This document shows, piece by piece, positions 1 through 16,637 of a DNA stretch of 32,000 bases. Numbering within the stretch: position 1 is the stretch's first letter; each line of letters begins with the position of its first letter. This DNA is from Candidatus Saccharimonadota bacterium (GTDB lineage: Archaea > Micrarchaeota > Micrarchaeia > Micrarchaeales > Micrarchaeaceae). Made by a program: the position numbers and the translations under genes. Location of the stretch: contig AP024486.1 of the NCBI GenBank assembly GCA_021654395.1, positions 120,001 to 152,000 of the forward strand, in the 5' to 3' direction. A model generated the notes under the pieces. That model had not been told where the DNA came from, searched no databases, and saw nothing but the letters and a program-made list of their open reading frames with translations.

Positions 1-208
1 TTGGTGTTGCATCTATAGCATAAGATATCTTCTTTATAGAATCTGCCTCATCTATCTTTATTGAATCTATATTATCAACTAGCTTTATTAGTAGCGTCTG
101 GGCACCATCTTTTGCTATGTATGTAAAGCATGCATGCAATCCACTTACATCTATAACTGTATCGAAGCGATCCTCTAATATCACCTTTAACTTATCCAAG
201 TGCATCAT
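1..208 (-). CDS. hypothetical protein, N-terminal part only (continues beyond left edge)
   Basis: Not in the ORF track. The reverse strand from 208 reads MMHLDKLKVILEDRFDTVIDVSGLHACFTYIAKDGAQTLLIKLVDNIDSIKIDEADSIKKISYAIDATP with no stop up to position 1. Its ATG (208-206) overlaps the TGA (207-205) of the upstream radical-SAM gene (ATGA coupling). No family recognised. Confidence 0.4.
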   Translation of the reverse strand, partial: MMHLDKLKVILEDRFDTVIDVSGLHACFTYIAKDGAQTLLIKLVDNIDSIKIDEADSIKKISYAIDATP

Positions 209-1272
209 ATAACACTCTTTATTATATTATCTATTATTGATTGATATGCTTCGCATGCAGTCCAGCTCTTTGGCTCTTTTCCATTATCAATCATTCTTAA
301 TGCTTCTTTGGCCTTATCTGATCTTAGTATACTCAGTAAAGAGTAGTTACTATCTCTTAGATTGCCTAAGACGAGACCCCACATTATAGATGGATATACA
401 TTTCCATAGCTATCTATAAAGATAGAGGATCTTATGCTTCTAGCAGGTAATGGTGGCCTTCCAGTCCTTACAAAATCTATTAGCTTTCTAGTAAATATAG
501 AATCTATATACACAACTGGATCTAGTCTACTCTTTCTACTTCTTATAAACTTAGAGATCTGATCTATAACAACAGGATCATTTACAGGAATAGATACATT
601 ATCATCATTATTTCTATAATAATGCTCCGATATCTGCGCAACATTTATATGAAATCTATCATAGTCTACCCATGGGAGCTCCCTCTTAACCTCTTCTATG
701 GTCTTGATAAGCTCTGACTTATTTAGACTGCTTATTGTATATCCAAAAACAAATGAGAATCTATTATCGCTATCTTCTATAGACTTTAACTCTCTTGCTA
801 ACTCTATAACTCTATCATAATTACCTTTTATACCCCTTATCTTATCATGAAGATCTCTATAGCCATCTAAGCTTAATGTTATTACTACCTTTGGTATCTT
901 GAGCTCTAAGAACTGCTTTACAGATTTTACTATGAAGTTCTTATTAACTAGAGAGTTTGTAGGCATATTTATTAGAAATAGCTTGCTCTGTGTCTCTTTT
1001 ATTGATTTAACTATATCTACTATATCGCTTCTTAGAAATGGCTCGCCACCAGTAATCTCTACCCATCTAAAGAATCTATTACGCTCAAAGATCTCTCTAA
1101 TCTCTTCAGTAGAGAGCTCATTCTTAGGCTTTAGCTGCCATATATTACATGTCAAGCATCTTGATTGACATCTATAAGTTACTGCAAAGTTTAGCTTGTA
1201 TGGTAAAGAATTAAATCTGAGATTAGTCTTTATTAGTAATGGCAAGCCGTTCTTAAGCATAACACTATTCAT
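205..1272 (-). CDS. radical SAM domain protein (function unassigned)
   Basis: 355 aa with an ATG start. Has the N-terminal CxxxCxxC cluster motif 'YRCQSRCLTCNIW' and the 'ITGGEPFL' SAM-binding motif. The C-terminus is Cys-poor ('WTACEAY'), so at most a degenerate twitch/SPASM-like extension. Confidence 0.8.
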   Translation of the reverse strand: MNSVMLKNGLPLLIKTNLRFNSLPYKLNFAVTYRCQSRCLTCNIWQLKPKNELSTEEIREIFERNRFFRWVEITGGEPFLRSDIVDIVKSIKETQSKLFLINMPTNSLVNKNFIVKSVKQFLELKIPKVVITLSLDGYRDLHDKIRGIKGNYDRVIELARELKSIEDSDNRFSFVFGYTISSLNKSELIKTIEEVKRELPWVDYDRFHINVAQISEHYYRNNDDNVSIPVNDPVVIDQISKFIRSRKSRLDPVVYIDSIFTRKLIDFVRTGRPPLPARSIRSSIFIDSYGNVYPSIMWGLVLGNLRDSNYSLLSILRSDKAKEALRMIDNGKEPKSWTACEAYQSIIDNIIKSVI

Positions 1273-1400
1273 CTTAAGCTCATCCGAATCTCTATCACTA
1301 TTTACTATTATTAGATATTTAAATCTTTTTTATATATCTGATTTAGCTTATAAAAAGCAGATATTTAAAATAATCATAACTAATTTATCTACTGATATAC

Positions 1401-2543
1401 ATGAATCTATTAGGCGACTCTATTAACTTAAATGCAGGATTAATAAAAGAGGTGCCAATAGTCGATTACGAAGAGCCACTTGTTAGATATACAGAAAAGC
1501 TATTTAATCAAAAGGCATTGATTGTTACTGATTCTAAAGGCTATTATGGAATTGTTGACTCTAGAAGTATAATAAGAAGAGGCCTCAAGCTTAAGATAAA
1601 TGAAAAGTCTAGAATAGGTAAGTTTGCGATTAACGCACCGCTCTTATCTGAGTTCTCAACTGTTAATAATCTGTTAAACTACTTTTATAAATATAAGCTA
1701 AATGCATTTGCATATAGCGATAACAATAAGATACTTGGCGTTGTAGATAAGTATATAGCAATGAGAGTAATGCTATCTCTAAAGCTACTAAGCGGCTTAA
1801 AAGTAAAGGATATTATGAGCTCCCCAGTAGTAGCCATAACAGAGAATGAAACATTAGGCTTCGCTATAAAAACAATGAATGAAAGAGCCATTCATAGATT
1901 AATAGTATATGTAGATAATTCTAGCAGATATGGATTAATAACTTATACTGATATAATAAGAAGCTTCCTGAATATTACATCAAGGGCTGTTGAGATCAGA
2001 TCATCAACTAGAAATATAAAGAATGAGAAGGTTGGGAGATTTGCAGTTACAAGTGTATATACGATAAGCTCTAATAGTGATATCGATACTGCTATTAGAG
2101 AGATGGTAGAGAAGAATATATCTTCGTTAGTAGTAGATGATGGTAAAGGCCCGATAGGAATTATCTCGTTTACAGATCTGGTGAAAGCATATATAAATAG
2201 CAAGAATGAAGAGAATAACAATATAATAGTATCTGGCTTAGATAAGCTAACGTATGATTACGAAGATTATATTAAAGAAGAGCTCGGTAGATTTAAGCTT
2301 AAGATAGAGAGATTAGAGAAAGTGAAAGTTAAAGAGATAAACTTACATATAAAGGCAAATAAGAGAAAGCTTTATGAGATAGTACTAAGGGCTAAACTGG
2401 AGAATGGTAGGGTAGAGAGCGTTTATAAGACAGGATATCTGCTAGAGAATCTGCTCAATCAAGCATTAGATACATTAAAGAATAAGATACTTAAGAATGA
2501 AGATAGGCTTGTTGAGATTGTAAGAAGTGATAGATCTGAGTAA
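1401..2543 (+). CDS. four-CBS-domain protein with C-terminal HPF/RaiA-like (beta-alpha-beta-beta-beta-alpha) domain
   Basis: 380 aa with an ATG start. Four CBS-like repeats, e.g. 'VKDIMSSPVVAITENETLGFAIKTMNERAIHRLIVY..GLITYTDIIRSF' and 'VGRFAVTSVYTISSNSDIDTAIREMVEKNISSLVVDDGKGPIGIISFTDLVKAY'. Residues ~274-366 resemble bacterial HPF by eye (see findings). Confidence 0.75.
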   Translation: MNLLGDSINLNAGLIKEVPIVDYEEPLVRYTEKLFNQKALIVTDSKGYYGIVDSRSIIRRGLKLKINEKSRIGKFAINAPLLSEFSTVNNLLNYFYKYKLNAFAYSDNNKILGVVDKYIAMRVMLSLKLLSGLKVKDIMSSPVVAITENETLGFAIKTMNERAIHRLIVYVDNSSRYGLITYTDIIRSFLNITSRAVEIRSSTRNIKNEKVGRFAVTSVYTISSNSDIDTAIREMVEKNISSLVVDDGKGPIGIISFTDLVKAYINSKNEENNNIIVSGLDKLTYDYEDYIKEELGRFKLKIERLEKVKVKEINLHIKANKRKLYEIVLRAKLENGRVESVYKTGYLLENLLNQALDTLKNKILKNEDRLVEIVRSDRSE

Positions 2544-2997
2544 CTTAAGGCTTCAAGCAAGCTTAGAGCTATTAATAACATTAAGCTTTGGTTTAGTTAT
2601 ACTCATACCAATTATAGGCTTTGCCTTAGTGCAAGTTGCAAATGCTAATTATAATCTAGAGGCCTTAGAAGCGCAGCAAGCAGCGCAAGCGATTGCAAAT
2701 ACGGCAACTCTCGTATATCAAGAGGGATATCCTGCTAAGAGCGTAGTAGAGATATATGTACCTCCAGGTGTAGAGAATATATATGTAGGCAGTACAAATG
2801 GTAACTATGGCCACTTTATAATCTTTCAGCTCTACTCAATCTTAGGGCCAGACTATGTTAGCGCTTATACAACAGCAAATATAACAGGATATCTAGGAAA
2901 TATAGTTCAGCAGGGCTCATATCTGGTTAGTATAGAAGCAAATAGCAGCTGCTCTTTCACTCAGAATAAGCTCTGTGTAGTTATAAGCTCTTCTTAG
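2527..2997 (+). CDS. type IV pilin-like protein with class III (DUF361-like) signal peptide
   Basis: 156 aa. The only upstream in-frame start is GTG at 2527, 17 nt inside the preceding gene. The N-terminus 'MIDLSNLRL/QASLELLITLSFGLVILIPIIGFALV' matches the archaeal prepilin QxSxE + hydrophobic helix pattern. The rest is a Ser/Asn/Tyr-rich extracellular domain with 2 Cys near the C-terminus. Confidence 0.55.
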   Translation: MIDLSNLRLQASLELLITLSFGLVILIPIIGFALVQVANANYNLEALEAQQAAQAIANTATLVYQEGYPAKSVVEIYVPPGVENIYVGSTNGNYGHFIIFQLYSILGPDYVSAYTTANITGYLGNIVQQGSYLVSIEANSSCSFTQNKLCVVISSS

Positions 2998-3314: not shown

Positions 3315-4028
3315 ATGATATCTACAGGAATTGAGGGTCTGGATCGCCTACTCGGAGGTGGAATACCAGAGAATAACCAGGTCCTTCTAAGTGGAGGTCC
3401 TGGAGCTGGTAAGACATTGCTTGCATTCAATATAGCGTATAACTTATCAAAGAAAGGAATAAACTCTGGTTTTATATGCTTAGATGAAGAGTCTAGCATG
3501 CTTCTGAGAAATGTTAAAGCAACTTTTACTAATATAAAAGATATAGACGATTTAATAAATAGCAAGAAGCTCGCTGTTATAAAGTCAGATATCTACTCTA
3601 AAGCCATACAGAATACTGAGCATATATATAAGATAAATGATATAATAGGAGAGTTAACATCTATAATATCTTCTAATAGAGATATAAGATTTCTAGTTAT
3701 AGACTCTCTAACTACATTAAGATTTATATTTGCAGAAGATAGAGAGTTTAGGAAGGCGTTAGTGACAATACTGTCATTCATAAGAAGAAATAATATAATT
3801 GGTCTGTTTACCTCTGAGATGTACACCTCTGAAAGAAAAGATCTAAGATTTAACGAAGAGTTCTTTATATTTGACGATATATTAACAATGTATCTTAATA
3901 CTGAAAGCAATAGAAGAATGCCATTGATAGAGGTTATTAAGAGCAGAGGTACAAGGCATCAGTGGGTAGCTGTACCTTATGAGATAACCCCATTTGGTGT
4001 AAATGTAATTGCAGAGCAAGAGGATTAG
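3315..4028 (+). CDS. KaiC-like / RecA-superfamily ATPase (COG0467-type, single domain)
   Basis: 237 aa. 'GIEGLDRLLGGGIPENNQVLLSGGPGAGKTLLAFNIA' carries Walker A, 'ICLDEESSMLL' is KaiC-type, and 'RFLVIDSLTTL' is Walker B. GGAG lies 11 nt upstream of the ATG. Confidence 0.8.
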   Translation: MISTGIEGLDRLLGGGIPENNQVLLSGGPGAGKTLLAFNIAYNLSKKGINSGFICLDEESSMLLRNVKATFTNIKDIDDLINSKKLAVIKSDIYSKAIQNTEHIYKINDIIGELTSIISSNRDIRFLVIDSLTTLRFIFAEDREFRKALVTILSFIRRNNIIGLFTSEMYTSERKDLRFNEEFFIFDDILTMYLNTESNRRMPLIEVIKSRGTRHQWVAVPYEITPFGVNVIAEQED

Positions 4029-5004
4029 AGAGAGTCGCTTACTATCAAACAAGGTAGCTATATCTGCTATAATATTATTAGTAGTAATAGCATTACTGCT
4101 TAATCTATTTATAACGTCAGGAAGTATCGCTCAGCAGTGTCAGCACAAGATAGGCTCTGCTACGTACTTATGCTTTGAGAATGCTGCAGAGTATAACTCT
4201 AACGCTTCTTATTGCTTATATATAAAAAATTCTAGCTACTTTTATAACTGCATATACGGAGCCGCCTCAAATATAGATAGCTGTTACCATCTAAATGGCT
4301 CTCTAAGAGATATATGCATATATGATAACTTCAATCAGAGCTATAATGTATCTGACTGTTCATTACTAGGTAATAACTCTGCAGGATGCTACTATAGATA
4401 TATGCTGTTAAGTGGGGATACTAGCTACTGTAAGTATATAGAGAATAGTAACTACTCATACTTATGCAACTCTATAACTTATTATAAGGATGCCATATTA
4501 TATAGAAACTCTAGCTACTGTAGCTTAATAAACAACTCTGCAGTAATAAGGTATCTTATACTAAGGCAGGGCTACGGCTCTTACTTATCTCCATATCTCA
4601 TATATAATATATCAAACAGAGATGCTTGTCTTATATCTATTGGTTATACCTATCATAATTCTAGCTACTGCTCTTATATAAGCAATCAGTACGCAGCACT
4701 TTACTGTAAAGATTATTTGAATAGTAGTATACAGAATCTCTCTTTAAGCAATTTGAGTAGAGAGATATCGCAGTGCCAATCTAGTCTTTCAAGCTATGGA
4801 ATATCAGATACCACACTTTACTGTAGCTATCCTATATATACTGATTATGCAATAAAGGAGAAGAATATAACGGCATGTAACGACATAAGTAATGCAACTC
4901 TAGTAGACCTATGCGTATACTTTTATAGCTACTATTATAAGAATACTAGCTACTGTAGCTTAATAAAGAATAGCAGTTTATATTCTAATTGTACTAATAT
5001 ATAG
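4009..5004 (+). CDS. membrane-anchored Cys-rich repeat glycoprotein (unknown function)
   Basis: 331 aa. TTG start at 4009 overlaps the KaiC-like gene by 20 nt. N-terminal 'KRIRESRLLSNK' is followed by the TM helix 'VAISAIILLVVIALLLNLFI'. My count gives 20 Cys and 19 N-x-S/T sequons. Four copies of 'SYC-xx-I-x-N-x6-C', with matching DNA repeats of 'CTAGCTACTG'. Confidence 0.65.
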   Translation: MQSKRIRESRLLSNKVAISAIILLVVIALLLNLFITSGSIAQQCQHKIGSATYLCFENAAEYNSNASYCLYIKNSSYFYNCIYGAASNIDSCYHLNGSLRDICIYDNFNQSYNVSDCSLLGNNSAGCYYRYMLLSGDTSYCKYIENSNYSYLCNSITYYKDAILYRNSSYCSLINNSAVIRYLILRQGYGSYLSPYLIYNISNRDACLISIGYTYHNSSYCSYISNQYAALYCKDYLNSSIQNLSLSNLSREISQCQSSLSSYGISDTTLYCSYPIYTDYAIKEKNITACNDISNATLVDLCVYFYSYYYKNTSYCSLIKNSSLYSNCTNI

Positions 5005-9055: not shown

Positions 9056-10135
9056 TTAATCTTTTTTACTATAGAACTCTTCATCGATCTTCTTTATAAG
9101 CTCTAACTCTGCCCTTGATGGCCTCTTTGGTATATCTATGTTTAGAATAATGTGCAGATCTCCTGAATGACCATATCTATTCTTTAATCCGTATCCTTTT
9201 ATTAAGATCTCGTCATTCTGCTGCGATCCCTTAGGTATAGATATCTCTTTAATCCCATAAGGTGTTTCTATCTTTAGAGTAGAACCTAGTATTGCCTTTG
9301 TATAAGGTATATTTATCTTCATATAAACATCGTTGCCTTCTATATGTAGATTCTCATTCTGCTTAAGATGAACTCTTAATATAAGATCTCCAGCCCCTCC
9401 AGTATCATAATCGCCTTGATTGCTTAATCTAAGCATATCTCCATCTCTAACATCTAGGGGTATCTCTATCTCTATATCCTCCTCTTTAAGCAGCTTACCC
9501 TTACCTTTACAGAGCACACACTTGTTCTTATATACTCTTCCAGAGCCGTTGCACATATCGCATATAGTAACTGTCTCAATCATACCGAATATTCCACTTC
9601 TTCTAGATACTATTCTGCCTCTACCATTGCATTTTGGACAGACCTCTGCAACTGAGCCGGGCTCTGCACCACTGCCATTACATCTGGAGCATCTTACAAA
9701 ATGCTTTACTTTTATTACTTTCTTTGATTGATTTATTATATCGCTTATATCTAGATATAGATCGTATACTATATCTCTACCCCTCTTAGCAGAGCTTCTT
9801 GAAAAGCCGAAGAAGTCATCAAATAGATTATCTGAGATGTCAAAGCCAAACTGTCTAAATATAGACTCTATATCAAAGTCTTTGAATATATCCTCCTTTG
9901 AGAATCTCTGTGAGAAGCCCGCCTTACCATACTTGTCATAAGCTGCTCTCTTCTCTGGATCACTTAGTACAGCGTATGCCTCATTTATCTTCTTAAATAT
10001 CTCCTCTGCCTTTGGATCCTTATTTCTGTCTGGATGATACTGTAGAGCGAGCCTTCTATAGGCTCGCTTTATCTCATCTTGAGTTGCATCTCTACTTACT
10101 CCAAGAATCTTATAGTAATCCTCCTCGTCATCCAT
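9056..10135 (-). CDS. dnaJ: chaperone DnaJ (type I, J-domain + Zn finger)
   Basis: '[33 protein letters not shown]' (J domain with HPD). Four CxxCxGxG repeats: [32 protein letters not shown]. Confidence 0.96.
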
Positions 10136-10137
10136 TG

Positions 10138-11982
10138 CTATCCTACAACCTTATAGTTAGCGTCCTTAAAATTATTATTATCTCCTTGATTTCCGCTACT
10201 ATCGCCTGGTCCACTATTACTATTAGAGCCGCTGAAGCTACCGTAAAGGTTCTGTCCTATCTTCTTTAGCTCTTCAGATAGCTCATTGTACTTCTGCTTT
10301 ATGCTTTCTATATCTGATCTTGATATTGCATCCTTGAGCTCGTCCTTTAGCTTGGATAATCTACTCTCTAGATCTGAAGGTATCTTACCTTTATACTCTT
10401 TGAGCATATTCTCTGTTGCATATACTAATGACTCTGCATTATTCTTAGTCTCTATCTCCTCTTTTATCTTTTTATCCCTTTCTGCAAACTCTTGTGCTGC
10501 TTTTAATGCTTGATCTATCTCCTCTTTGCTCATCTTTAGCGGTGCTGTAATATCCATCTTCTGCTCTTTACCTGTTGCCATATCCTTCGCTGTAACATGC
10601 AGTATTCCGTTAGCATCTATATCGAAAGTAACCTCTATCTTTGGAACTCCTCTAGGCGCTGGGGGTATTCCTGTTAGTGTAAATCTACCTAATTGTATAT
10701 TATCCTTTGCTAAAGGCCTTTCTCCCTGAACAACAACTATATCCACGCTAGTCTGATTATCCTCTACTGTTGTAAATATCTCAGACTTCTTTACTGGTAT
10801 TGTTGTATTCCTAGGTATTATAGGAGTTGCTATTCCTCCGTATGTCTCAATAGATAACGTTAATGGTGTTACATCCAGTAATAGTATGTCCTTAACCTCT
10901 CCAGCTATCACACCTGCCTCTATAGCTGCGCCCATAGCTACTGCCTCCATTGGATCTACTCCTCTTTCTATCTTCTTTCCTAGGAGCTGCTCTACATATC
11001 TCTGAACTATAGGCATTCTTGTAGGACCACCTATCAGTATAATCTTATCTATCTGCTCTGGCTCTAGCTTTGCATCTTTTAAGGCTTGCTTGACTGGAAT
11101 AGCAGATCTCTCTATTATAGGCATTACTAGCTGCTCTAGCTTTGCTCTAGTTAATGTATAGCTAAAGTTTATAGGATTATTTGATCTATCGACAGCCAGG
11201 AATGGTAGATTTATATCGGTCTGCAGCACTGTTGATAGCTCTATCTTTGCTCTCTCTGCTGCTTCATAGAGTCTCTGCATTGCCTGCTTATTCTGTGTTA
11301 CATCTATAGAGTACTTACTTTTTATCTCTTCTACTAAGAAGTTAACTATCGCATTATCCATATCAGTACCTCCCAGCTGAGTATCTCCTGCTGTTGCCTT
11401 TACCTCAAACACGCCATTTCCAAACTCCATTATTGTTACATCTAATGTTCCTCCGCCCAGATCATATACTAAGATCTTCATCTCCTTATCTGACTTGTCT
11501 AGACCGTATGCTAAGCAAGCGGCAGTAGGCTCGTTTAGCAGTCTTACAACCTCCAAGCCAGCTATCTCTCCCGCGTCCTTTGTCGCTTGCCTCTGGTTAT
11601 CATTAAAGTATGCTGGGACTGTTATAACTGCCTTTGTTACTGGCTCTCCTAAGAAGGCCTCTGCATCTCTCTTTATCTTTTGTAGTAAGAACGCTGCTAT
11701 CTGCTGCGGCTTATATGTCTTTCCATATATATTGTATACATGATCTGATCCCATGTATCTCTTAAATCTTGATATTGTGCCTTCGGGATTAGCTACCGCC
11801 TGTCTTCTTGCTGGTTCTCCAACTAGCACTTGTCCGTCTTTTGTAAATGCAACATAGCTTGGGAATGATTTACCATAAGGCGTCATTCCTTCTGCACTGG
11901 GTATTATCACTGGCCTTCCTCCTTGTAGAACTGCTGCTGCTGAGTTAGAAGTTCCCAAATCTATTCCTATAATCTTACTCAT
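10138..11982 (-). CDS. dnaK: chaperone DnaK (Hsp70)
   Basis: '[11 protein letters not shown]', 'DLGGGTLDV', '[11 protein letters not shown]'. The track ORF starts at 12009, but GAGGTG lies 6 nt upstream of the ATG at 11982, which gives the canonical '[11 protein letters not shown]'. Confidence 0.96.
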
Positions 11983-12532
11983 TACCATCACCTCTTTTAG
12001 CATTACCATTTGATATTATAACTAAAGATGGCCTTATAACGATATTATCGTATATATAGCCTTTCTTTATAATCTCTAAGATCTCACCCTCTGGCTTGTC
12101 GCTATCCTTAGATAGTATAACCTCATGAAAGTTTGGATCGTATCTGCCTTTTGCCTCTATCTCTCTAAGACCCATCTTCTTTAAGTAATCATAAAGATTT
12201 GAATAGACCATTGCTATACCTTTTACAATCTCGTTATCTGCCATTGTTTTCAATGCAATCATTGCAATATCGAACTCATCTAGTATAGGCAGCATATCTG
12301 TAAAGAACTTAACAGTAGCTGTCCTCTCAGCATTCTTATAGTTCTCTTCTGCTCTCTTCTTGAAGTTATCAAACTCTGCTGCTAGTCTTATTAGATTCTC
12401 TTTCAAGCGTTTACATTCATCTATAAGCTTATTATACTCATTCTCATCTATCTCTACTTTCTTCTGCTCTTTCTGCTCATTATTAGATTCTTTCTTATCT
12501 TTATCTGATCTGCTTTCAGCATTATCTGCCAT
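11975..12532 (-). CDS. grpE: nucleotide exchange factor GrpE
   Basis: '[12 protein letters not shown]', '[18 protein letters not shown]'. Candidate ATGs are at 12538 and 12532. GAGGTG (12545-12540) is 7 nt from 12532 and 1 nt from 12538, so 12532 is preferred. The stop overlaps the dnaK start. Confidence 0.9.
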
Positions 12533-12917
12533 TACCATTCACCTCTAATAGCTTAAGCATCTCCTTCATATCATTAAGTATACCTTTAACATCATTACTA
12601 AGTTGGTCTATTGCATTTATTAGATTCATACCCCTTATATAGTAGCTTCTGCCGTTCTTTACTATCATGCCTGCCTCCATAAGCTTATTTATGTGATATA
12701 GAACTGTTGTCCTTGGTAGCTCCCTGCCTATTAGCCTGTTTATCTCTTTGCTTATCTCTAAGCTAGTCATTCCTTTGTCGCTTCTTGCTGCCTTTATCAA
12801 TGATCTTAAGATTAAGGCTTCCATAGCGTCAAATTCAAATGTCTGACATAGCCAGGCCATTACCGATTCTATGTCATTGTTTAATGGCTTATCGATCTTT
12901 CTTATTATTACTCTCAT
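12522..12917 (-). CDS. winged-helix (ArsR/TrmB-like) transcriptional regulator, first gene of the grpE-dnaK-dnaJ operon
   Basis: ~131 aa. The ATG at 12917 is one codon inside the TTG at 12920. 'MTSLEISKEINRLIGRELPRTTVLYHINKLMEAGMIVKNGRSYYIRG' fits an HTH + wing pattern. The 3' end overlaps the grpE start. Confidence 0.65.
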   Translation of the reverse strand: MRVIIRKIDKPLNNDIESVMAWLCQTFEFDAMEALILRSLIKAARSDKGMTSLEISKEINRLIGRELPRTTVLYHINKLMEAGMIVKNGRSYYIRGMNLINAIDQLSNDVKGILNDMKEMLKLLEVNGNGR

Positions 12918-12937
12918 CAATTAAGATATTAAGTAGC

Positions 12938-12957
12938 GAAAGTTTTAAATATTTTTC
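12938..12957. promoter_or_regulatory. quasi-symmetric bidirectional BRE-TATA-BRE promoter (hsp20 / wHTH-grpE-dnaK-dnaJ)
   Basis: The + strand reads 'GAAAGTTTTAAATATTTTTC' and the - strand 'GAAAAATATTTAAAACTTTC'. A GAAA + A/T-rich TATA core is present in both orientations, ~30 nt from the regulator ATG (12917) and ~50 nt from the hsp20 ATG (13002). Confidence 0.45.
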
Positions 12958-13001
12958 TAATATTAAAAAATAAATTGAAGATTCGAAAAAAGGTGGTAAA
13001 A

Positions 13002-13433
13002 ATGGCAAGAGAAGATAGATTACCTGGTTTATTTGATGAGGAGTTTTTTGAAATTCCAAGGATAATGAGAAAGCAGATGAACAGAGCATTAAAGGAGTTC
13101 TTTGAAGAGGCAGAGTTTCCAAAGGTAGACATAATAGATAAGAAAGACTCTATAATAGTAAAAGCAGATGTTCCAGGAGTACCAAAGGACAAGCTAAATA
13201 TAAGAGTAAGAGACAATGGCATTGTAATTAAGGGAGATCTTTCAGAAGAGAAAGAGGAGAAAGATGGTAGCTACTACATGAGAGAAAGATATATCAGCTC
13301 ATTCTATAGAGACATTGAGCTACCAAGTGATGTAGATCCAAACTCAGCAAAAGCGAAGTACGAGAATGGTGTCTTAACAATAGAGCTTAAGAAGAGAAAG
13401 GAAGAGATAGGAAAAGAGATCCCAGTTGAGTGA
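13002..13433 (+). CDS. hsp20: small heat-shock protein, Hsp20/alpha-crystallin family
   Basis: Alpha-crystallin domain: 'VDIIDKKDSIIVKADVPGVPKDKLNIRVRDNGIVIKG...AKYENGVLTIELKK'. ATG 13002 is preceded by GGTGG (12992-12996); the track start at 12975 is a TTG. Confidence 0.9.
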   Translation: MAREDRLPGLFDEEFFEIPRIMRKQMNRALKEFFEEAEFPKVDIIDKKDSIIVKADVPGVPKDKLNIRVRDNGIVIKGDLSEEKEEKDGSYYMRERYISSFYRDIELPSDVDPNSAKAKYENGVLTIELKKRKEEIGKEIPVE

Positions 13434-13438
13434 TTTTT
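13434..13438 (+). terminator. oligo-T tract after hsp20
   Basis: A T5 run immediately follows the hsp20 TGA (13431-13433). Archaeal terminators are oligo-T tracts. It overlaps the stop of the convergent GT2 gene. Confidence 0.25.
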
Positions 13439-14510
13439 ATTCTTTTATCTTATATATGCTCCCTCTCCACATTATCTCTTTTTTATTATATGCTACTAAT
13501 AGATCATAGATATATATTAGATTTATAAATAGCATGATATATGCAGTCTTTATCTTACTGATCCTTGTTATACGCTCTGCTCTTAATATGCTTAATATCT
13601 TTGGTGTTAAGAGCAGTAAACCAATAGGATTAGCTATTAATAGCAAGTATAACGAGTAGATAAAGATTCCTTCAAAAATTACATAGTAGATTATACCATA
13701 GTAAAATATATATCTATTTGCGTAGATTGTCCAGACTGTCTGTCTAATAGACCATTCAATAAAGCTGCCAAAGCTTTCACTTATATAGACATAGCTTATA
13801 TCAGCTATATAATTTATCTTCATTCCTTTACTCTTATAGAACTTAGTTATTGTAATATCATCAGATTTCTTATGGTAAAGCTGATCTATAAGCTCTTCTA
13901 TATAAAGGTTAGGGAATGCTAGAGAGCCGCCCCAGCCGAATCTTGTCTTATCAGAAGACATTAATGAGAAGCCTATAAAGTTCCAGACGTGCTTTACATC
14001 AGACCAGAAGCCTCTTAAAGGCATAAAGTATGGATATGTAGTAGATATATGCTTACTCTCTAAGCTATTAACTAGGCTCTCTAACCAGTTCTTCTTAGGA
14101 TATACATCTGAATCTGCTATAACAAACGCGTAATATCTACTACTTTTATACTTTTTTAAAGCATATATTAAGGCATTAACCTTTCCGCTAGTATCTTCTA
14201 TCTTATTCTTAGCTATTAGATACTTTAAACCATATCTCCTAATGTAGCTTAAGGCAGGATCATTCTTAGAATCAACGACCGCAACAATATCGTAATTCTT
14301 GTAGCTCTGACTCTTAAGCGCAATAATGTTATCTTCCATCTTTCTATCTATGCCCTTATAAGGAACTATAACAAGCACTCTTTTATCTTTATCTACTTTT
14401 CTGAGATTATCTCTATTATACCTATCTGAGTAGATTATGTCTCTTAATAAAGATAGATCAAAGAGTATAGATATTAAAAGTATCAGCGCTTTTATATATG
14501 ATCCTATCAT
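13437..14510 (-). CDS. membrane-bound family 2 glycosyltransferase
   Basis: 357 aa. N-terminal TM, then 'RVLVIVPYKGID', 'DIVAVVDSKND', DxD 'IADSDVYP', 'GGSLAF', a (Q/R)xxRW-like 'IRQTVW', and C-terminal TM helices. Confidence 0.75.
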   Translation of the reverse strand: MIGSYIKALILLISILFDLSLLRDIIYSDRYNRDNLRKVDKDKRVLVIVPYKGIDRKMEDNIIALKSQSYKNYDIVAVVDSKNDPALSYIRRYGLKYLIAKNKIEDTSGKVNALIYALKKYKSSRYYAFVIADSDVYPKKNWLESLVNSLESKHISTTYPYFMPLRGFWSDVKHVWNFIGFSLMSSDKTRFGWGGSLAFPNLYIEELIDQLYHKKSDDITITKFYKSKGMKINYIADISYVYISESFGSFIEWSIRQTVWTIYANRYIFYYGIIYYVIFEGIFIYSLYLLLIANPIGLLLLTPKILSILRAERITRISKIKTAYIMLFINLIYIYDLLVAYNKKEIMWRGSIYKIKE

Positions 14511-14899
14511 TTGAATATACCTATAAAGCTCTCTACATCTAAGCCTTTCTCTATCATATGATCCTTGCTTATAGCGAAGCTATCGTTTAGCTCTTTGAGA
14601 TCCTTTATCTCTATGAAGCGCCAACCTACTCTGTTTATCCTCCATGCTAAGTAGGATCTTATACTACTCTCACTGCTCCACCTCTTAAGAGTCTCTATCT
14701 GCTCTTTTCTTATATAAAGTATCTTCTTGCTTACTGCTTTGCACTCTATTATAGCACCAATCTTATTCTTAAAGACTATCAGATCCGGACTTAATGAGTT
14801 TACACCACTACCTGCTGCTCTAATTGCAACGAATCCATTATCTATAAATAGGTTAAGTAGCTCTCTTTCTCTATCTGCTCCTTTTCTATAGTGGCTCAT
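14507..14899 (-). CDS. hjc: Holliday junction resolvase Hjc
   Basis: 'YRKGADRERELLNLFIDNGFVAIRAAGSG...PDLIVFKN...IIECKA...VGWRFIEI' aligns closely with the Pyrococcus Hjc pattern. The stop overlaps the GT2 start (ATGA). Confidence 0.9.
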   Translation of the reverse strand: MSHYRKGADRERELLNLFIDNGFVAIRAAGSGVNSLSPDLIVFKNKIGAIIECKAVSKKILYIRKEQIETLKRWSSESSIRSYLAWRINRVGWRFIEIKDLKELNDSFAISKDHMIEKGLDVESFIGIFK

Positions 14900-14901
14900 A
14901 G

Positions 14902-16476
14902 CTATCTCATAAAGTCCTTAAGCGTTCTCTGCCTATCTCCGTTAAGTAGAATTCTTTTTATACTTTTAATATCGTATCCGCTCTCTAGCATATTCTTTAT
15001 CTTATAAATTAGCTCGTGCATCCTTCTCTCTTTTAATGATACTACTCTTAGATTATACTCATCTCTAGAGTCGCGGGTAACGAGTATGTATATCTCGCCT
15101 GCCTTTATTCTACCTGCCCTGCCTTTTCTTTGAATACTTCTTATCTCACTAGGTATCGCTTCATAAAATATAACAGCATCTACAGCAGGTATATCTAAGC
15201 CCTCTTCTCCTATAGAGGTAGACACTAGAACTTGGTAATCTTCTGTCCTAAATCTTTCTATAAACTCCTCTTGCAATCTTTGAGACATACCTTTGTTCTT
15301 ACCCATAAATGGTAGTACTTTTATATTATTAGATCTTAGATAGTCATTTAGTACATTAATAGTTGATTTGTACTGTGCAAATATTATCACTTTCCTATCC
15401 TTTAGTACTGTATTTAAAAGATCCAAGACCCTATCGACCTTTGGATGCCTATAACCGTTACTTTTGAGTAGTTCAGCCTCTTTTACGGCTTCTTGCAGAT
15501 TACTATTGTTTAGGATTGCCCTTATATTTCTGCTCTTTGAAGCCTTTGAGCGCAGATCATATATATAGCTCAAGAACTGATCTAATCCTTCTACAGTCAA
15601 TAGCTCATGAGCATGCATAAGATGTAAAACATATGAGTAATCTAGAAATGAGATATATCTAGAAGTGCTATCCTCTATCTTCCTTATACTATCTGCCATG
15701 CTCAATATATAGCTTTTCGGAGCTGTTCTAAAGTTTCTAAATGCTGACAGATTCCTTTCATAAAGCCTTTGCATATGCTCATCTATTACTATAGCTATCT
15801 TATCTGCTATCTCTTGAAGCTCTCTATATAATGCTATCTGAAGTATCTTAACAAGCTTAGTTGGTATATAGTCTATTATGTCTTTATCCTGCTCGCTTCT
15901 TATCTCTATATGGCCTATGTTCAATAATGAAAGCAGAGAGATTATCTTGCTCTTTGAGCCACCAGGAGATGCAGTTAATGCTATTATCCTTATATTGCTC
16001 TCTAAAGCCTTCTCAGCTAATATGGCATAGGCATATCTTCCTACAGCTTTATGTGCCTCATCAAATACGATTAAGCTGAAATCCTTTAGATCTATCAATC
16101 CTCTCTCTAGATCGTTCTTTATAGTCTGTGGAGTTGCTACAACTATATAGCTATTCTTGTATATAGTTGCTCTCTCATCATAGCTCTTTGATCCTATAGC
16201 TAATGCTATCTGATTATCTGTTAGATTTGTTATAGAAAGTACTGTCTTATAATGTTGCTCTGCAAGAGGCTTAGTGGGTGCCAGAAATAAAGCCTTCTTA
16301 CCTATATTTGCATATGCCAATATTACGTATATAGCTATTATAGTCTTACCAGTTCCTGTTGGTAGAATGACTAATGAGTTGCTCTTGCTTCTTAATATAC
16401 TGCTTATTATATCCTTCTGATAGTCTCTGAGCTTAATACTCTCATTAAGCTTAAATCTTAAGAATGGTTGCTGCAT
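14902..16476 (-). CDS. hef: Hef/FANCM-type helicase, helicase module only (no ERCC4 nuclease domain)
   Basis: 524 aa. 'LRDYQKDIISSIL..NSLVILPTGTGKT', 'LAPTKPLAEQH', 'VVATPQTIKNDL', 'LIVFDEAHKAVGRYAY', 'ALTASPG', 'RKGRAGR'. The N-terminal helicase motif blocks match those of Pyrococcus Hef by eye. The ORF ends right after helicase motif VI and a short tail. Confidence 0.85.
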   Translation of the reverse strand: MQQPFLRFKLNESIKLRDYQKDIISSILRSKSNSLVILPTGTGKTIIAIYVILAYANIGKKALFLAPTKPLAEQHYKTVLSITNLTDNQIALAIGSKSYDERATIYKNSYIVVATPQTIKNDLERGLIDLKDFSLIVFDEAHKAVGRYAYAILAEKALESNIRIIALTASPGGSKSKIISLLSLLNIGHIEIRSEQDKDIIDYIPTKLVKILQIALYRELQEIADKIAIVIDEHMQRLYERNLSAFRNFRTAPKSYILSMADSIRKIEDSTSRYISFLDYSYVLHLMHAHELLTVEGLDQFLSYIYDLRSKASKSRNIRAILNNSNLQEAVKEAELLKSNGYRHPKVDRVLDLLNTVLKDRKVIIFAQYKSTINVLNDYLRSNNIKVLPFMGKNKGMSQRLQEEFIERFRTEDYQVLVSTSIGEEGLDIPAVDAVIFYEAIPSEIRSIQRKGRAGRIKAGEIYILVTRDSRDEYNLRVVSLKERRMHELIYKIKNMLESGYDIKSIKRILLNGDRQRTLKDFMR

Positions 16477-16545: not shown

Positions 16546-16637
16546 GCCGCAGTAGCTCAGCCAGGGCAGAGCGTCCGGCTGAAGATATATATAAAGCGGA
16601 AACCGGAAAGTCGCAGGTTCAAATCCTGCCTGCGGCA
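16546..16637 (+). tRNA. tRNA-Phe (anticodon GAA) with 17-nt intron at canonical 37/38 position
   Basis: Hand-folded cloverleaf. Acceptor GCCGCAG/CTGCGGC, D stem GCTC/GAGC, anticodon stem TCCGG/CCGGA, loop CTGAAGA once 16585-16601 is removed, T arm GCAGG-TTCAAAT-CCTGC, discriminator A. No encoded CCA. This is the only GC-rich island in its intergenic region. Confidence 0.9.
16585..16601 (+). other. tRNA-Phe intron
   Basis: 'ATATATATAAAGCGGAA' interrupts the anticodon loop after G37; removing it restores a 7-nt loop and a 75-nt tRNA. The boundary could shift by 1 nt because of flanking A residues. Confidence 0.7.

Follow-up and report, generated by a model that had tools for sequence, protein, structure and literature searches.

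The gene at positions 1401 to 2543 of the stretch analysed here (32,000 nucleotides of contig AP024486.1, positions 120,001 to 152,000 of the forward strand; referred to as the window) encodes four CBS domains followed by an HPF/RaiA-like domain, and its product, ARM1_0125, is very probably the ortholog in Micrarchaeota of HibA/AHA, an archaeal ribosome hibernation factor. The translated open reading frame is 100% identical to ARM1_0125 of Candidatus Micrarchaeota archaeon, which carries the database label 'hypothetical protein'; its relatives are labelled 'hypothetical' or 'CBS domain-containing', and these annotations can now be corrected. The organism, ARM-1, is a cultivated thermoacidophilic DPANN ectosymbiont of Metallosphaera with a complete genome of 814,439 bp (PMC8784108), and ARM1_0125 is a full-length, divergent ortholog in this 814-kb genome. 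A CBS–HPF fusion had been proposed for this gene in an earlier analysis that used only the letters of the DNA (the sequence-only reading); the proposal has been borne out, and before late 2025 it would have counted as a genuine discovery. That reading had asked whether the architecture was already described. It is: four CBS domains plus HPF were published in 2025–2026 as HibA (PMC13324472) and AHA (PMC12934967), and ARM1_0125 is an uncharacterised divergent member of this known family in a DPANN lineage.

HibA (Madru et al., bioRxiv, October 2025; Nat Commun, April 2026; PMC13324472) was found by electron cryo-microscopy (cryo-EM) of stressed Pyrococcus abyssi ribosomes. It is PAB0961 in P. 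abyssi (PDB entries 9SR9 to 9SRF and 9T7H) and F0LKU5 in Thermococcus barophilus, and is built from four CBS domains (residues 1–269) and an HPF/RaiA-like domain (residues 270–392). The C-terminal domain occupies the mRNA/tRNA channel of the 30S subunit and the CBS module is seen in three positions on the 50S subunit, in one of which the loop 190–207 wraps a peptidyl-transferase centre (PTC) adenine that is universally conserved. HibA inhibits translation in vitro, which the isolated N-terminal module does not, and in T. barophilus its knockout slows the recovery from stationary phase and lowers the number of 70S ribosomes by ∼60%. The CBS3/4 interface binds AMP (Kd 12 µM) more tightly than ADP or ATP, and neither AMP nor ATP clearly altered the binding of HibA to the ribosome (PMC13324472). 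AHA was described from Haloferax volcanii (Souza et al., bioRxiv, February 2026), its family being regarded as HPF's archaeal branch; knockout phenotypes are reported for it, and 3,160 homologs were counted in 2,723 species and 17 phyla (PMC12934967). The work on the two proteins comprises cryo-EM, knockouts and surveys (PMC12934967, PMC13324472). HibA is present in 47% of 4,026 archaeal genomes and stand-alone HPF/RaiA-like proteins in 8% of archaeal genomes, 'mostly DPANN and Nitrososphaerales', the genome database of that survey including many Micrarchaeota (PMC13324472). With such a distribution, the statement in the sequence-only reading that the HPF/S30AE family is classically bacterial or plastid is outdated.

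Domain architecture and relation to HibA/AHA

The gene and its parts are placed as follows.

1273..1400, no strand assigned: AT-rich divergent intergenic region of 128 nt, presumed promoter region (direct sequence reading)
1401..2543, forward strand: HibA/AHA-type gene, ATG start, 380 aa plus stop (list of open reading frames)
1443..1586, forward strand: CBS1, residues ∼15–62 (AlphaFold2 strands 20–22, 40–44 and 47–52, helices 31–36 and 54–61)
1608..1778, forward strand: CBS2, residues ∼70–126 (AlphaFold2 helices 88–98 and 117–126, strands 102–107 and 110–116)
1797..1967, forward strand: CBS3, residues ∼133–189 (the best Pfam CBS stretch is residues 135–189)
1968..2045, forward strand: extended basic loop after CBS3, residues ∼190–215 (AlphaFold2 model and HibA alignment)
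2046..2204, forward strand: CBS4, residues ∼216–268 (AlphaFold2 strands 221–223, 242–246 and 251–256, helices 228–237 and 257–268)
2220..2498, forward strand: HPF-like domain, residues ∼274–366 (AlphaFold2 topology, Foldseek, tail-only profiles, PF02482 and hhalign)
2499..2540, forward strand: charged C-terminal tail, residues 367–380 (pLDDT <50 throughout)

The Pfam CBS family matches ARM1_0125 with an E value of 2.5e-30 and three stretches pass individually. An AlphaFold2 model of the full-length protein, built on five family sequences [predicted local distance difference test (pLDDT) 79.4, predicted template-modelling score (pTM) 0.76], contains four β-α-β-β-α units at residues ∼15–62, 70–126, 133–189 and 216–268, and Foldseek aligns 266–312 columns of this model to the four-CBS proteins SriA/B, Dri, MJ1225 and AMPK-gamma; the four CBS repeats that had been read at residues ∼15–265 are thus confirmed. 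The best full-length matches are ribosome-bound chains, namely Methanosarcina SriA/B (9znf_4, E = 1.5e-17), SriC/D and Pyrobaculum Dri, and further high-ranking matches are MJ1225 and SSO3205, both archaeal, and AMPK-gamma from eukaryotes. CBS tetrads dominate this search of the PDB, and neither HPF nor HibA chains are among the full-length matches; HibA is probably missing because the PDB copy that was searched ends on 2026-04-08, before the release of the HibA entries. CBS1 and CBS2 are colinear with their HibA counterparts in both the profile and the pairwise alignments, and the whole tetrad is colinear with HibA residues 4–269.

The G-h-h-T/S-x-x-D motif of CBS domains binds ribose and phosphate. 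A motif scan finds it only in CBS3 and CBS4 of ARM1_0125, as in P. abyssi HibA and in the majority of Micrarchaeota orthologs, and not in CBS1 or CBS2. CBS3 carries it as G178-LIT-YT-D184, with G178, T181 and D184 invariant in the family; the motif is present in this domain in 11 of 13 Micrarchaeota sequences and also in P. abyssi HibA. CBS4 carries it as G253-IIS-FT-D259 (G253 and D259 are invariant), and here all 13 Micrarchaeota sequences have it. The restriction to CBS3 and CBS4 fits the binding of an adenine nucleotide at the CBS3/4 junction, as in HibA and AHA. Between these two domains the model has no regular structure from residue 190 to about residue 215 (pLDDT <50 at residues 193–203). 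This loop has a net charge of +4 over residues 190–213 and aligns with P. abyssi HibA residues 190–207 at similar length, so that, as judged from the alignment, it corresponds in position to the 'PTC loop' of HibA and to 'loop 3' of AHA.

The C-terminal domain was analysed with two tail-only profiles: A2, made from five Micrarchaeota sequences, and A3, made from 19 sequences that contain no CBS sequence and include stand-alone proteins of ∼100–135 aa that were found when 1.84 billion cluster representatives were searched. Against the PDB, the four best matches of A2 are all HPF chains, with E. coli HPF aligned across the domain at an E value of 8.6e-4; A2 gave no match to HibA's C-terminal domain, while the broader A3 matched both HPF and HibA. 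A3 aligns with P. abyssi HibA (9sr9_H) over residues 286–379 (E = 1.6e-5) and with chain 9l96_a over residues 287–392 (E = 1.8e-5), followed by some 20 bacterial HPF/RaiA/YfiA chains; 24 of the 25 matches belong to the HPF family, among them E. coli, Staphylococcus aureus, Listeria and Bacillus HPF, and RaiA. E. coli HPF is matched by this second profile at E = 3.2e-4, and hhalign gives a probability of 88% for the same pair. PF02482 (S30AE) is the top Pfam match for residues 270–380 of ARM1_0125, spanning profile positions 11–87 of 88, and is the sole family with E ≤ 0.01 in a scan of the A3 members, 13 of which match it (best E = 2.1e-7).

Structure comparison gives the same answer. The AlphaFold model of the tail by itself has a pLDDT of 84.1, with strands at residues 4–7, 39–48, 54–62 and 67–74 and helices at 14–35 and 77–107 (tail numbering). 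Its 13 best Foldseek matches are all ribosome-bound HPF, pY or RaiA chains, with E values from 1.4e-5 to 1.3e-3 and TM-scores (template-modelling scores) of at most 0.73, and the next match has an E value of 0.018. These chains come from Borrelia, Listeria, spinach and Chlamydomonas chloroplasts, S. aureus, B. subtilis, A. baumannii, Coxiella and mycobacteria (RafH). The HPF-like match of the tail is far more than chance, and the HPF/RaiA-like fold that had been recognized by eye at residues ∼274–366 is upheld. Residues 367–380 are predicted to form a disordered or helical extension. Dodecin, SMEK_N, DUF5646, DUF6730 and VWA_2 were rejected as identities for the tail, as all are partial matches below the cutoffs.

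The assignment to HibA/AHA rests on alignments that run through both modules. A family profile of five sequences (A1) matches P. abyssi HibA (9sr9_H; PDB entry 9SR9 is HibA–ATP according to the data availability statement of PMC13324472) with an E value of 1.2e-40, aligning profile positions 8–374 with chain residues 4–379; the alignment runs end to end and through the HPF-like domain. Pairwise BLASTP against the same protein gives 24% identity with E = 3e-15, the match being confined to the CBS module. The combination of this end-to-end profile match with a pairwise identity of ∼24% identifies ARM1_0125 as a divergent HibA/AHA member. The two proteins share the order of the modules, with near-identical boundaries (1–269 and 270–392 in HibA, ∼1–268 and 274–366 in ARM1_0125), as well as the long post-CBS3 loop and the confinement of the ribose-phosphate motifs, and ARM1_0125 is 12 residues shorter overall. 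AHA likewise has four CBS domains and a C-terminal HPF domain, with an extended CBS3 loop that enters the PTC and with AMP bound at the CBS3/CBS4 junction; AHA binds two AMP molecules and HibA one nucleotide (PMC12934967, PMC13324472). The likeness to AHA is drawn from the published description. DPANN and Micrarchaeota are not mentioned in the main text of the AHA paper (PMC12934967). Of the features that characterize the family, ARM1_0125 thus has the four-CBS module, the C-terminal HPF fold, the end-to-end homology and the post-CBS3 loop, and lacks archaeal-specific HPF insertions of HibA length.

PDB chain 9l96_a (also 9l98, 9l9c and 9l9v) is a 406-aa 'CBS domain-containing protein' in ribosome-style entries, with the same architecture of four CBS domains and an HPF-like domain. 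Profile A1 aligns with it through its C-terminus (E = 1.7e-34). A literature search on PDB entry 9L96 found no relevant paper; the chain may represent a third independent structure of the HibA/AHA family.

The sequence-only reading had suggested a phyletic survey of this architecture in archaea. The tail profile search returned 216 cluster representatives, most of them 355–420 aa in length with the domain at the C-terminus, and a scan of GTDB representative genomes added 12 further full-length orthologs, all from Micrarchaeota and with 29–35% identity to ARM1_0125. In all 13 Micrarchaeota sequences the conserved tryptophan with which the last helix begins is replaced, as a clade feature, by tyrosine or histidine.

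Several observations weigh against the assignment to HibA/AHA or against carrying its function over. PF02482 scores only 19.5–19.6 bits (E = 0.0016–0.0017) on the ARM1_0125 tail, below the Pfam gathering cutoff of 23.7, and single-sequence phmmer of the tail against the PDB gives nothing beyond noise (E ≥ 0.5). The post-CBS3 loop is kept in position and length, but its sequence differs from that of P. abyssi HibA. With an isoelectric point (pI) of ∼9.4–9.8, the CBS module of Micrarchaeota is basic, and that of P. abyssi HibA (pI 5.2) is acidic, although the basic pI may only mirror a Lys-rich, low-GC proteome. Both archaeal-specific HPF insertions are shortened, by ∼2–3 and 5 residues, in 13 of 13 Micrarchaeota sequences, whereas in many of the other archaeal members the insertion hairpin of the HPF domain retains additional residues. 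In HibA, the first insertion (283-SAL-285) contacts the tail of uS19 and the second (324-KFRGVHL-330) contacts uS12 and the decoding bases (PMC13324472), so that some ribosome contacts must differ from those in P. abyssi. However, HibA with both insertions deleted inhibits in vitro translation as before (PMC13324472), and we therefore regard the shortened insertions as a compact variant that is compatible with membership of the family. Finally, a function in ribosome hibernation is known only for HibA of P. abyssi and T. barophilus and for AHA of H. volcanii (PMC13324472, PMC12934967), and the gating of a HibA-type factor by energy charge is hypothetical even for HibA.

From its relatives we infer that ARM1_0125 binds ribosomes and nucleotides and has a physiological role of this kind in ARM-1. 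In the mechanism that we propose, the C-terminal HPF/RaiA-like domain would sit in the mRNA/tRNA channel of 30S, covering its A and P sites, docking on 50S would fall to the N-terminal CBS tetrad, and the long basic loop after CBS3 would be positioned to reach the PTC; a single ARM1_0125 chain would in this way clamp and protect an idle 70S ribosome. The CBS3/CBS4 pair, to judge from its motifs, probably binds AMP, ADP or ATP, which would tie the factor to energy status. The sequence-only reading had suggested an energy-charge-gated ribosome-silencing factor: the silencing part stands, in that the architecture is that of an experimentally proven hibernation factor in HibA/AHA, and the gating part does not go beyond a hypothesis. 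The small ectosymbiont cell has few ribosomes, and keeping these intact is plausibly a condition of its survival off the host. Growth of ARM-1 in co-culture is established and electron cryo-tomography has already been applied to it, which makes hibernation in an obligate ectosymbiont directly testable.

The region upstream of the gene contains TATA-like motifs, for example ATATTTAAAA at 1361–1370, 31–40 nt before the ATG. As TATA-like strings are common at a GC content of ∼33%, we treat 1273..1400 only as the presumed promoter region of the HibA-type gene.

The conserved pilin-like neighbour

The gene directly downstream gives a new lead, as its pairing with the HibA-type gene is invariant in the loci compared.

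2527..2997, forward strand: type-IV-pilin-like gene, GTG start, 156 aa (putative class III signal peptide, 'UPF0333')

The GTG at which it starts lies within the 3' end of the HibA-type gene, the two genes overlapping by 17 nt. In each of the other 12 Micrarchaeota loci, tblastn places a homolog with 41–52% identity immediately downstream and in the same orientation, with a gap between the HibA-type stop and the pilin-like start of −29 to +25 nt, which varies with the choice of start codon. In an all-against-all comparison of flanking open reading frames, only these two genes are common to the 13 loci, every other real neighbour gene being shared by at most eight of the 13 and at variable distances. 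The pilin-like gene is also the better conserved of the two, with a mean pairwise identity of 61% versus 43% for the HibA-type gene. The N-terminal sequence [KR]-x-Q-S-S-[LF]-E-L-L-[IV]-T-L-x-F-G-L-x-I-L-x-P shows essentially no variation (12–13 sequences), and two cysteines are conserved at the C-terminal end. A short basic leader with Q at +1 and E at +5 before a hydrophobic helix marks an archaeal class III (type IV prepilin-like) signal peptide, of which we take this N-terminus to be a putative example. The family comprises 457 clusters, essentially all from metagenome-assembled genomes of Micrarchaeota type, and many of the relatives are named 'UPF0333 family' by JGI, with one named 'Flp pilus...'. 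Profile searches of Pfam, NCBIfam and the PDB gave no significant match for the pilin-like protein. ARM-1 cells bear thin filaments 'that could represent archaeal pili' (PMC11329633). A pilin-like neighbour is not mentioned for HibA or AHA in the sections of the two papers that were consulted (PMC13324472, PMC12934967). For one distant relative (P0005) the contig ends 46 nt past the gene and the gene context is uninformative.

The adjacency is conserved; that ribosome dormancy and a surface filament are functionally linked is speculative. We put forward, as a tentative and rather unlikely proposal, that Micrarchaeota and possibly other DPANN ectosymbionts use a compact HPF variant of 'bacterial length' that has lost the insertions contacting uS19 and uS12 and is encoded in a strictly conserved overlapping pair with the pilin-like gene, so that dormancy and the filament or host-attachment apparatus would be co-expressed or co-regulated, the cells being dormant when detached and active when attached.

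The same observations could be taken further, to a HibA-derived protein with a shifted role, in which the two genes, probably co-translated, form a lineage-specific module that couples translational dormancy to the state of the surface filament or of host attachment and ARM1_0125 is not a free-standing general hibernation factor. The downstream position of the pilin-like gene in every locus, its higher conservation and the inconstancy of the other neighbours would agree with this, as would the filaments of ARM-1, the clade-wide shortening of both HPF insertions and a CBS-module charge opposite to that of P. abyssi HibA. Adjacency alone, however, is no proof of functional coupling: the gene pair may simply share a promoter, and no mechanism is known that would connect a ribosome factor in the cytoplasm with a secreted pilin. 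The pilin call itself comes from the N-terminal motif and the source names, with no support from Pfam, NCBIfam or the PDB, the basic pI has the compositional explanation given above, and all of the homology evidence still favours ribosome binding. We consider a shifted role of this kind distinctly unlikely, and retain the assignment of ARM1_0125 as a HibA/AHA-type hibernation factor.

Comparison with bacterial HPF and with CBS-only proteins

The HPF-like domain belongs with bacterial and plastid HPF, RaiA, YfiA and pY (PF02482, COG1544) at the level of fold and profile, these families providing all 13 of the best Foldseek matches of the tail. The Micrarchaeota domain is nearer to the bacterial domain in length, as the archaeal insertions are short. 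ARM1_0125 differs from the bacterial proteins in that the domain is fused behind a CBS tetrad and has no C-terminal dimerization domain of the long-HPF kind, and archaeal HPF domains form a clade separate from the bacterial ones in published phylogenies (PMC12934967). ARM1_0125 is therefore related to bacterial HPF/RaiA but is not a bacterial-type HPF, given the score below the Pfam cutoff, the fusion to CBS domains and the archaeal clade in the published trees.

On the CBS side, similar structures are SriA–D/ARC of Methanosarcina acetivorans (PDB entries 9ZNF, 9ZNG and 9ZNI) and Dri of Pyrobaculum calidifontis (9E6Q and 9E7F), the CBS tetrads of which are homologous to that of ARM1_0125: sequence matches are found too, and beside the 9znf_4 match given above the Foldseek E values are 7.9e-15 for 9zni_6 and 7e-14 for Dri. 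In published trees, the HibA/AHA CBS module stands beside the 50S-binding SriA, CM-5 and Dri N-terminal group (PMC13324472, PMC12934967). Sri, ARC and Dri lack an HPF domain and rely solely on CBS modules to block the ribosome, whereas ARM1_0125 carries an HPF-like C-terminal domain; membership of this CBS-only group was rejected for this reason. AMPK gamma, MJ1225 and SSO3205 have a four-CBS disc like that of ARM1_0125 (Foldseek E values of about 1e-13 to 1e-16), and the adenine-nucleotide sites of CBS3/4 correspond to sites 3 and 4 of AMPK gamma (PMC12934967). These three are not ribosome factors, however, and have neither an HPF domain nor a long post-CBS3 loop.

It is very improbable that ARM1_0125 is a CBS-tetrad regulator that acts mainly through its CBS module, like Sri/ARC or HhpR, with an HPF-like tail that is vestigial or serves only for generic oligomerization: the strongest single-sequence and full-length Foldseek matches are indeed CBS tetrads, including SriA/B and Dri, and HhpR, Dodecin and SMEK_N appear as weak matches, but HhpR reaches 43 bits where the cutoff is 520, the Dodecin and SMEK_N matches in the tail are partial and below their cutoffs, and the tail is confidently folded (pLDDT 84), resembles structures of the HPF family only and is kept across the 216 cluster representatives, where it in every case either ends the chain or forms a protein by itself. 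The sequence-only reading had itself named two outcomes that would speak against an HPF fold, a lack of significant profile or structure matches and a generic oligomerization module; the matches of the tail are significant at both levels and point away from such a module. HhpR, a CM-3 CBS-tetrad transcription regulator (NF053603), was rejected at 43.3 bits with partial coverage of the CBS module, and the NCBIfam match to PrdR reflects generic CBS similarity far below the cutoff.

Other features of the window

No operon with translation genes was found around the HibA-type gene. The window has a GC content of ∼32–37%, except for one 2-kb bin at 41%. The remaining features are as follows.

205..1272, reverse strand: radical-SAM protein with weak Fer4_12 and SPASM signals, divergent from the HibA-type gene
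3315..4028: KaiC-like ATPase gene
4009..5004, forward strand: 331-aa protein with an N-terminal hydrophobic segment, the start of which overlaps the end of the KaiC-like gene
9056..10135, reverse strand: DnaJ
10138..12009, reverse strand: DnaK/Hsp70
11975..12538, reverse strand: GrpE
12522..12920, reverse strand: helix–turn–helix regulator
12975..13433, forward strand: Hsp20, divergent
13437..16476, reverse strand: co-directional run of a family-2 glycosyltransferase, Hjc and a DEAD/ResIII helicase
14507..14899, reverse strand: archaeal Holliday-junction resolvase Hjc
14902..16476, reverse strand: DEAD/ResIII helicase
16546..16637, forward strand: tRNA (Rfam, 60.3 bits; 92 nt for a 71-position model)

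The radical-SAM gene is not kept beside the HibA-type gene in other Micrarchaeota. The protein encoded at 4009..5004 has a very high content of Cys, Asn, Tyr and Ser, many N-x-S/T sequons and no Pfam match, and may be a secreted or surface glycoprotein. The heat-shock cluster spans 9056..13433; its dnaK region has the highest GC content of the window (0.406 versus ∼0.33), with a strong negative GC skew. The genes of the run at 13437..16476 are ordinary housekeeping genes. ARAGORN reported no tRNA anywhere in the window, and the Rfam match at 16546..16637 probably marks an archaeal tRNA that has an intron or is atypical in some other way.

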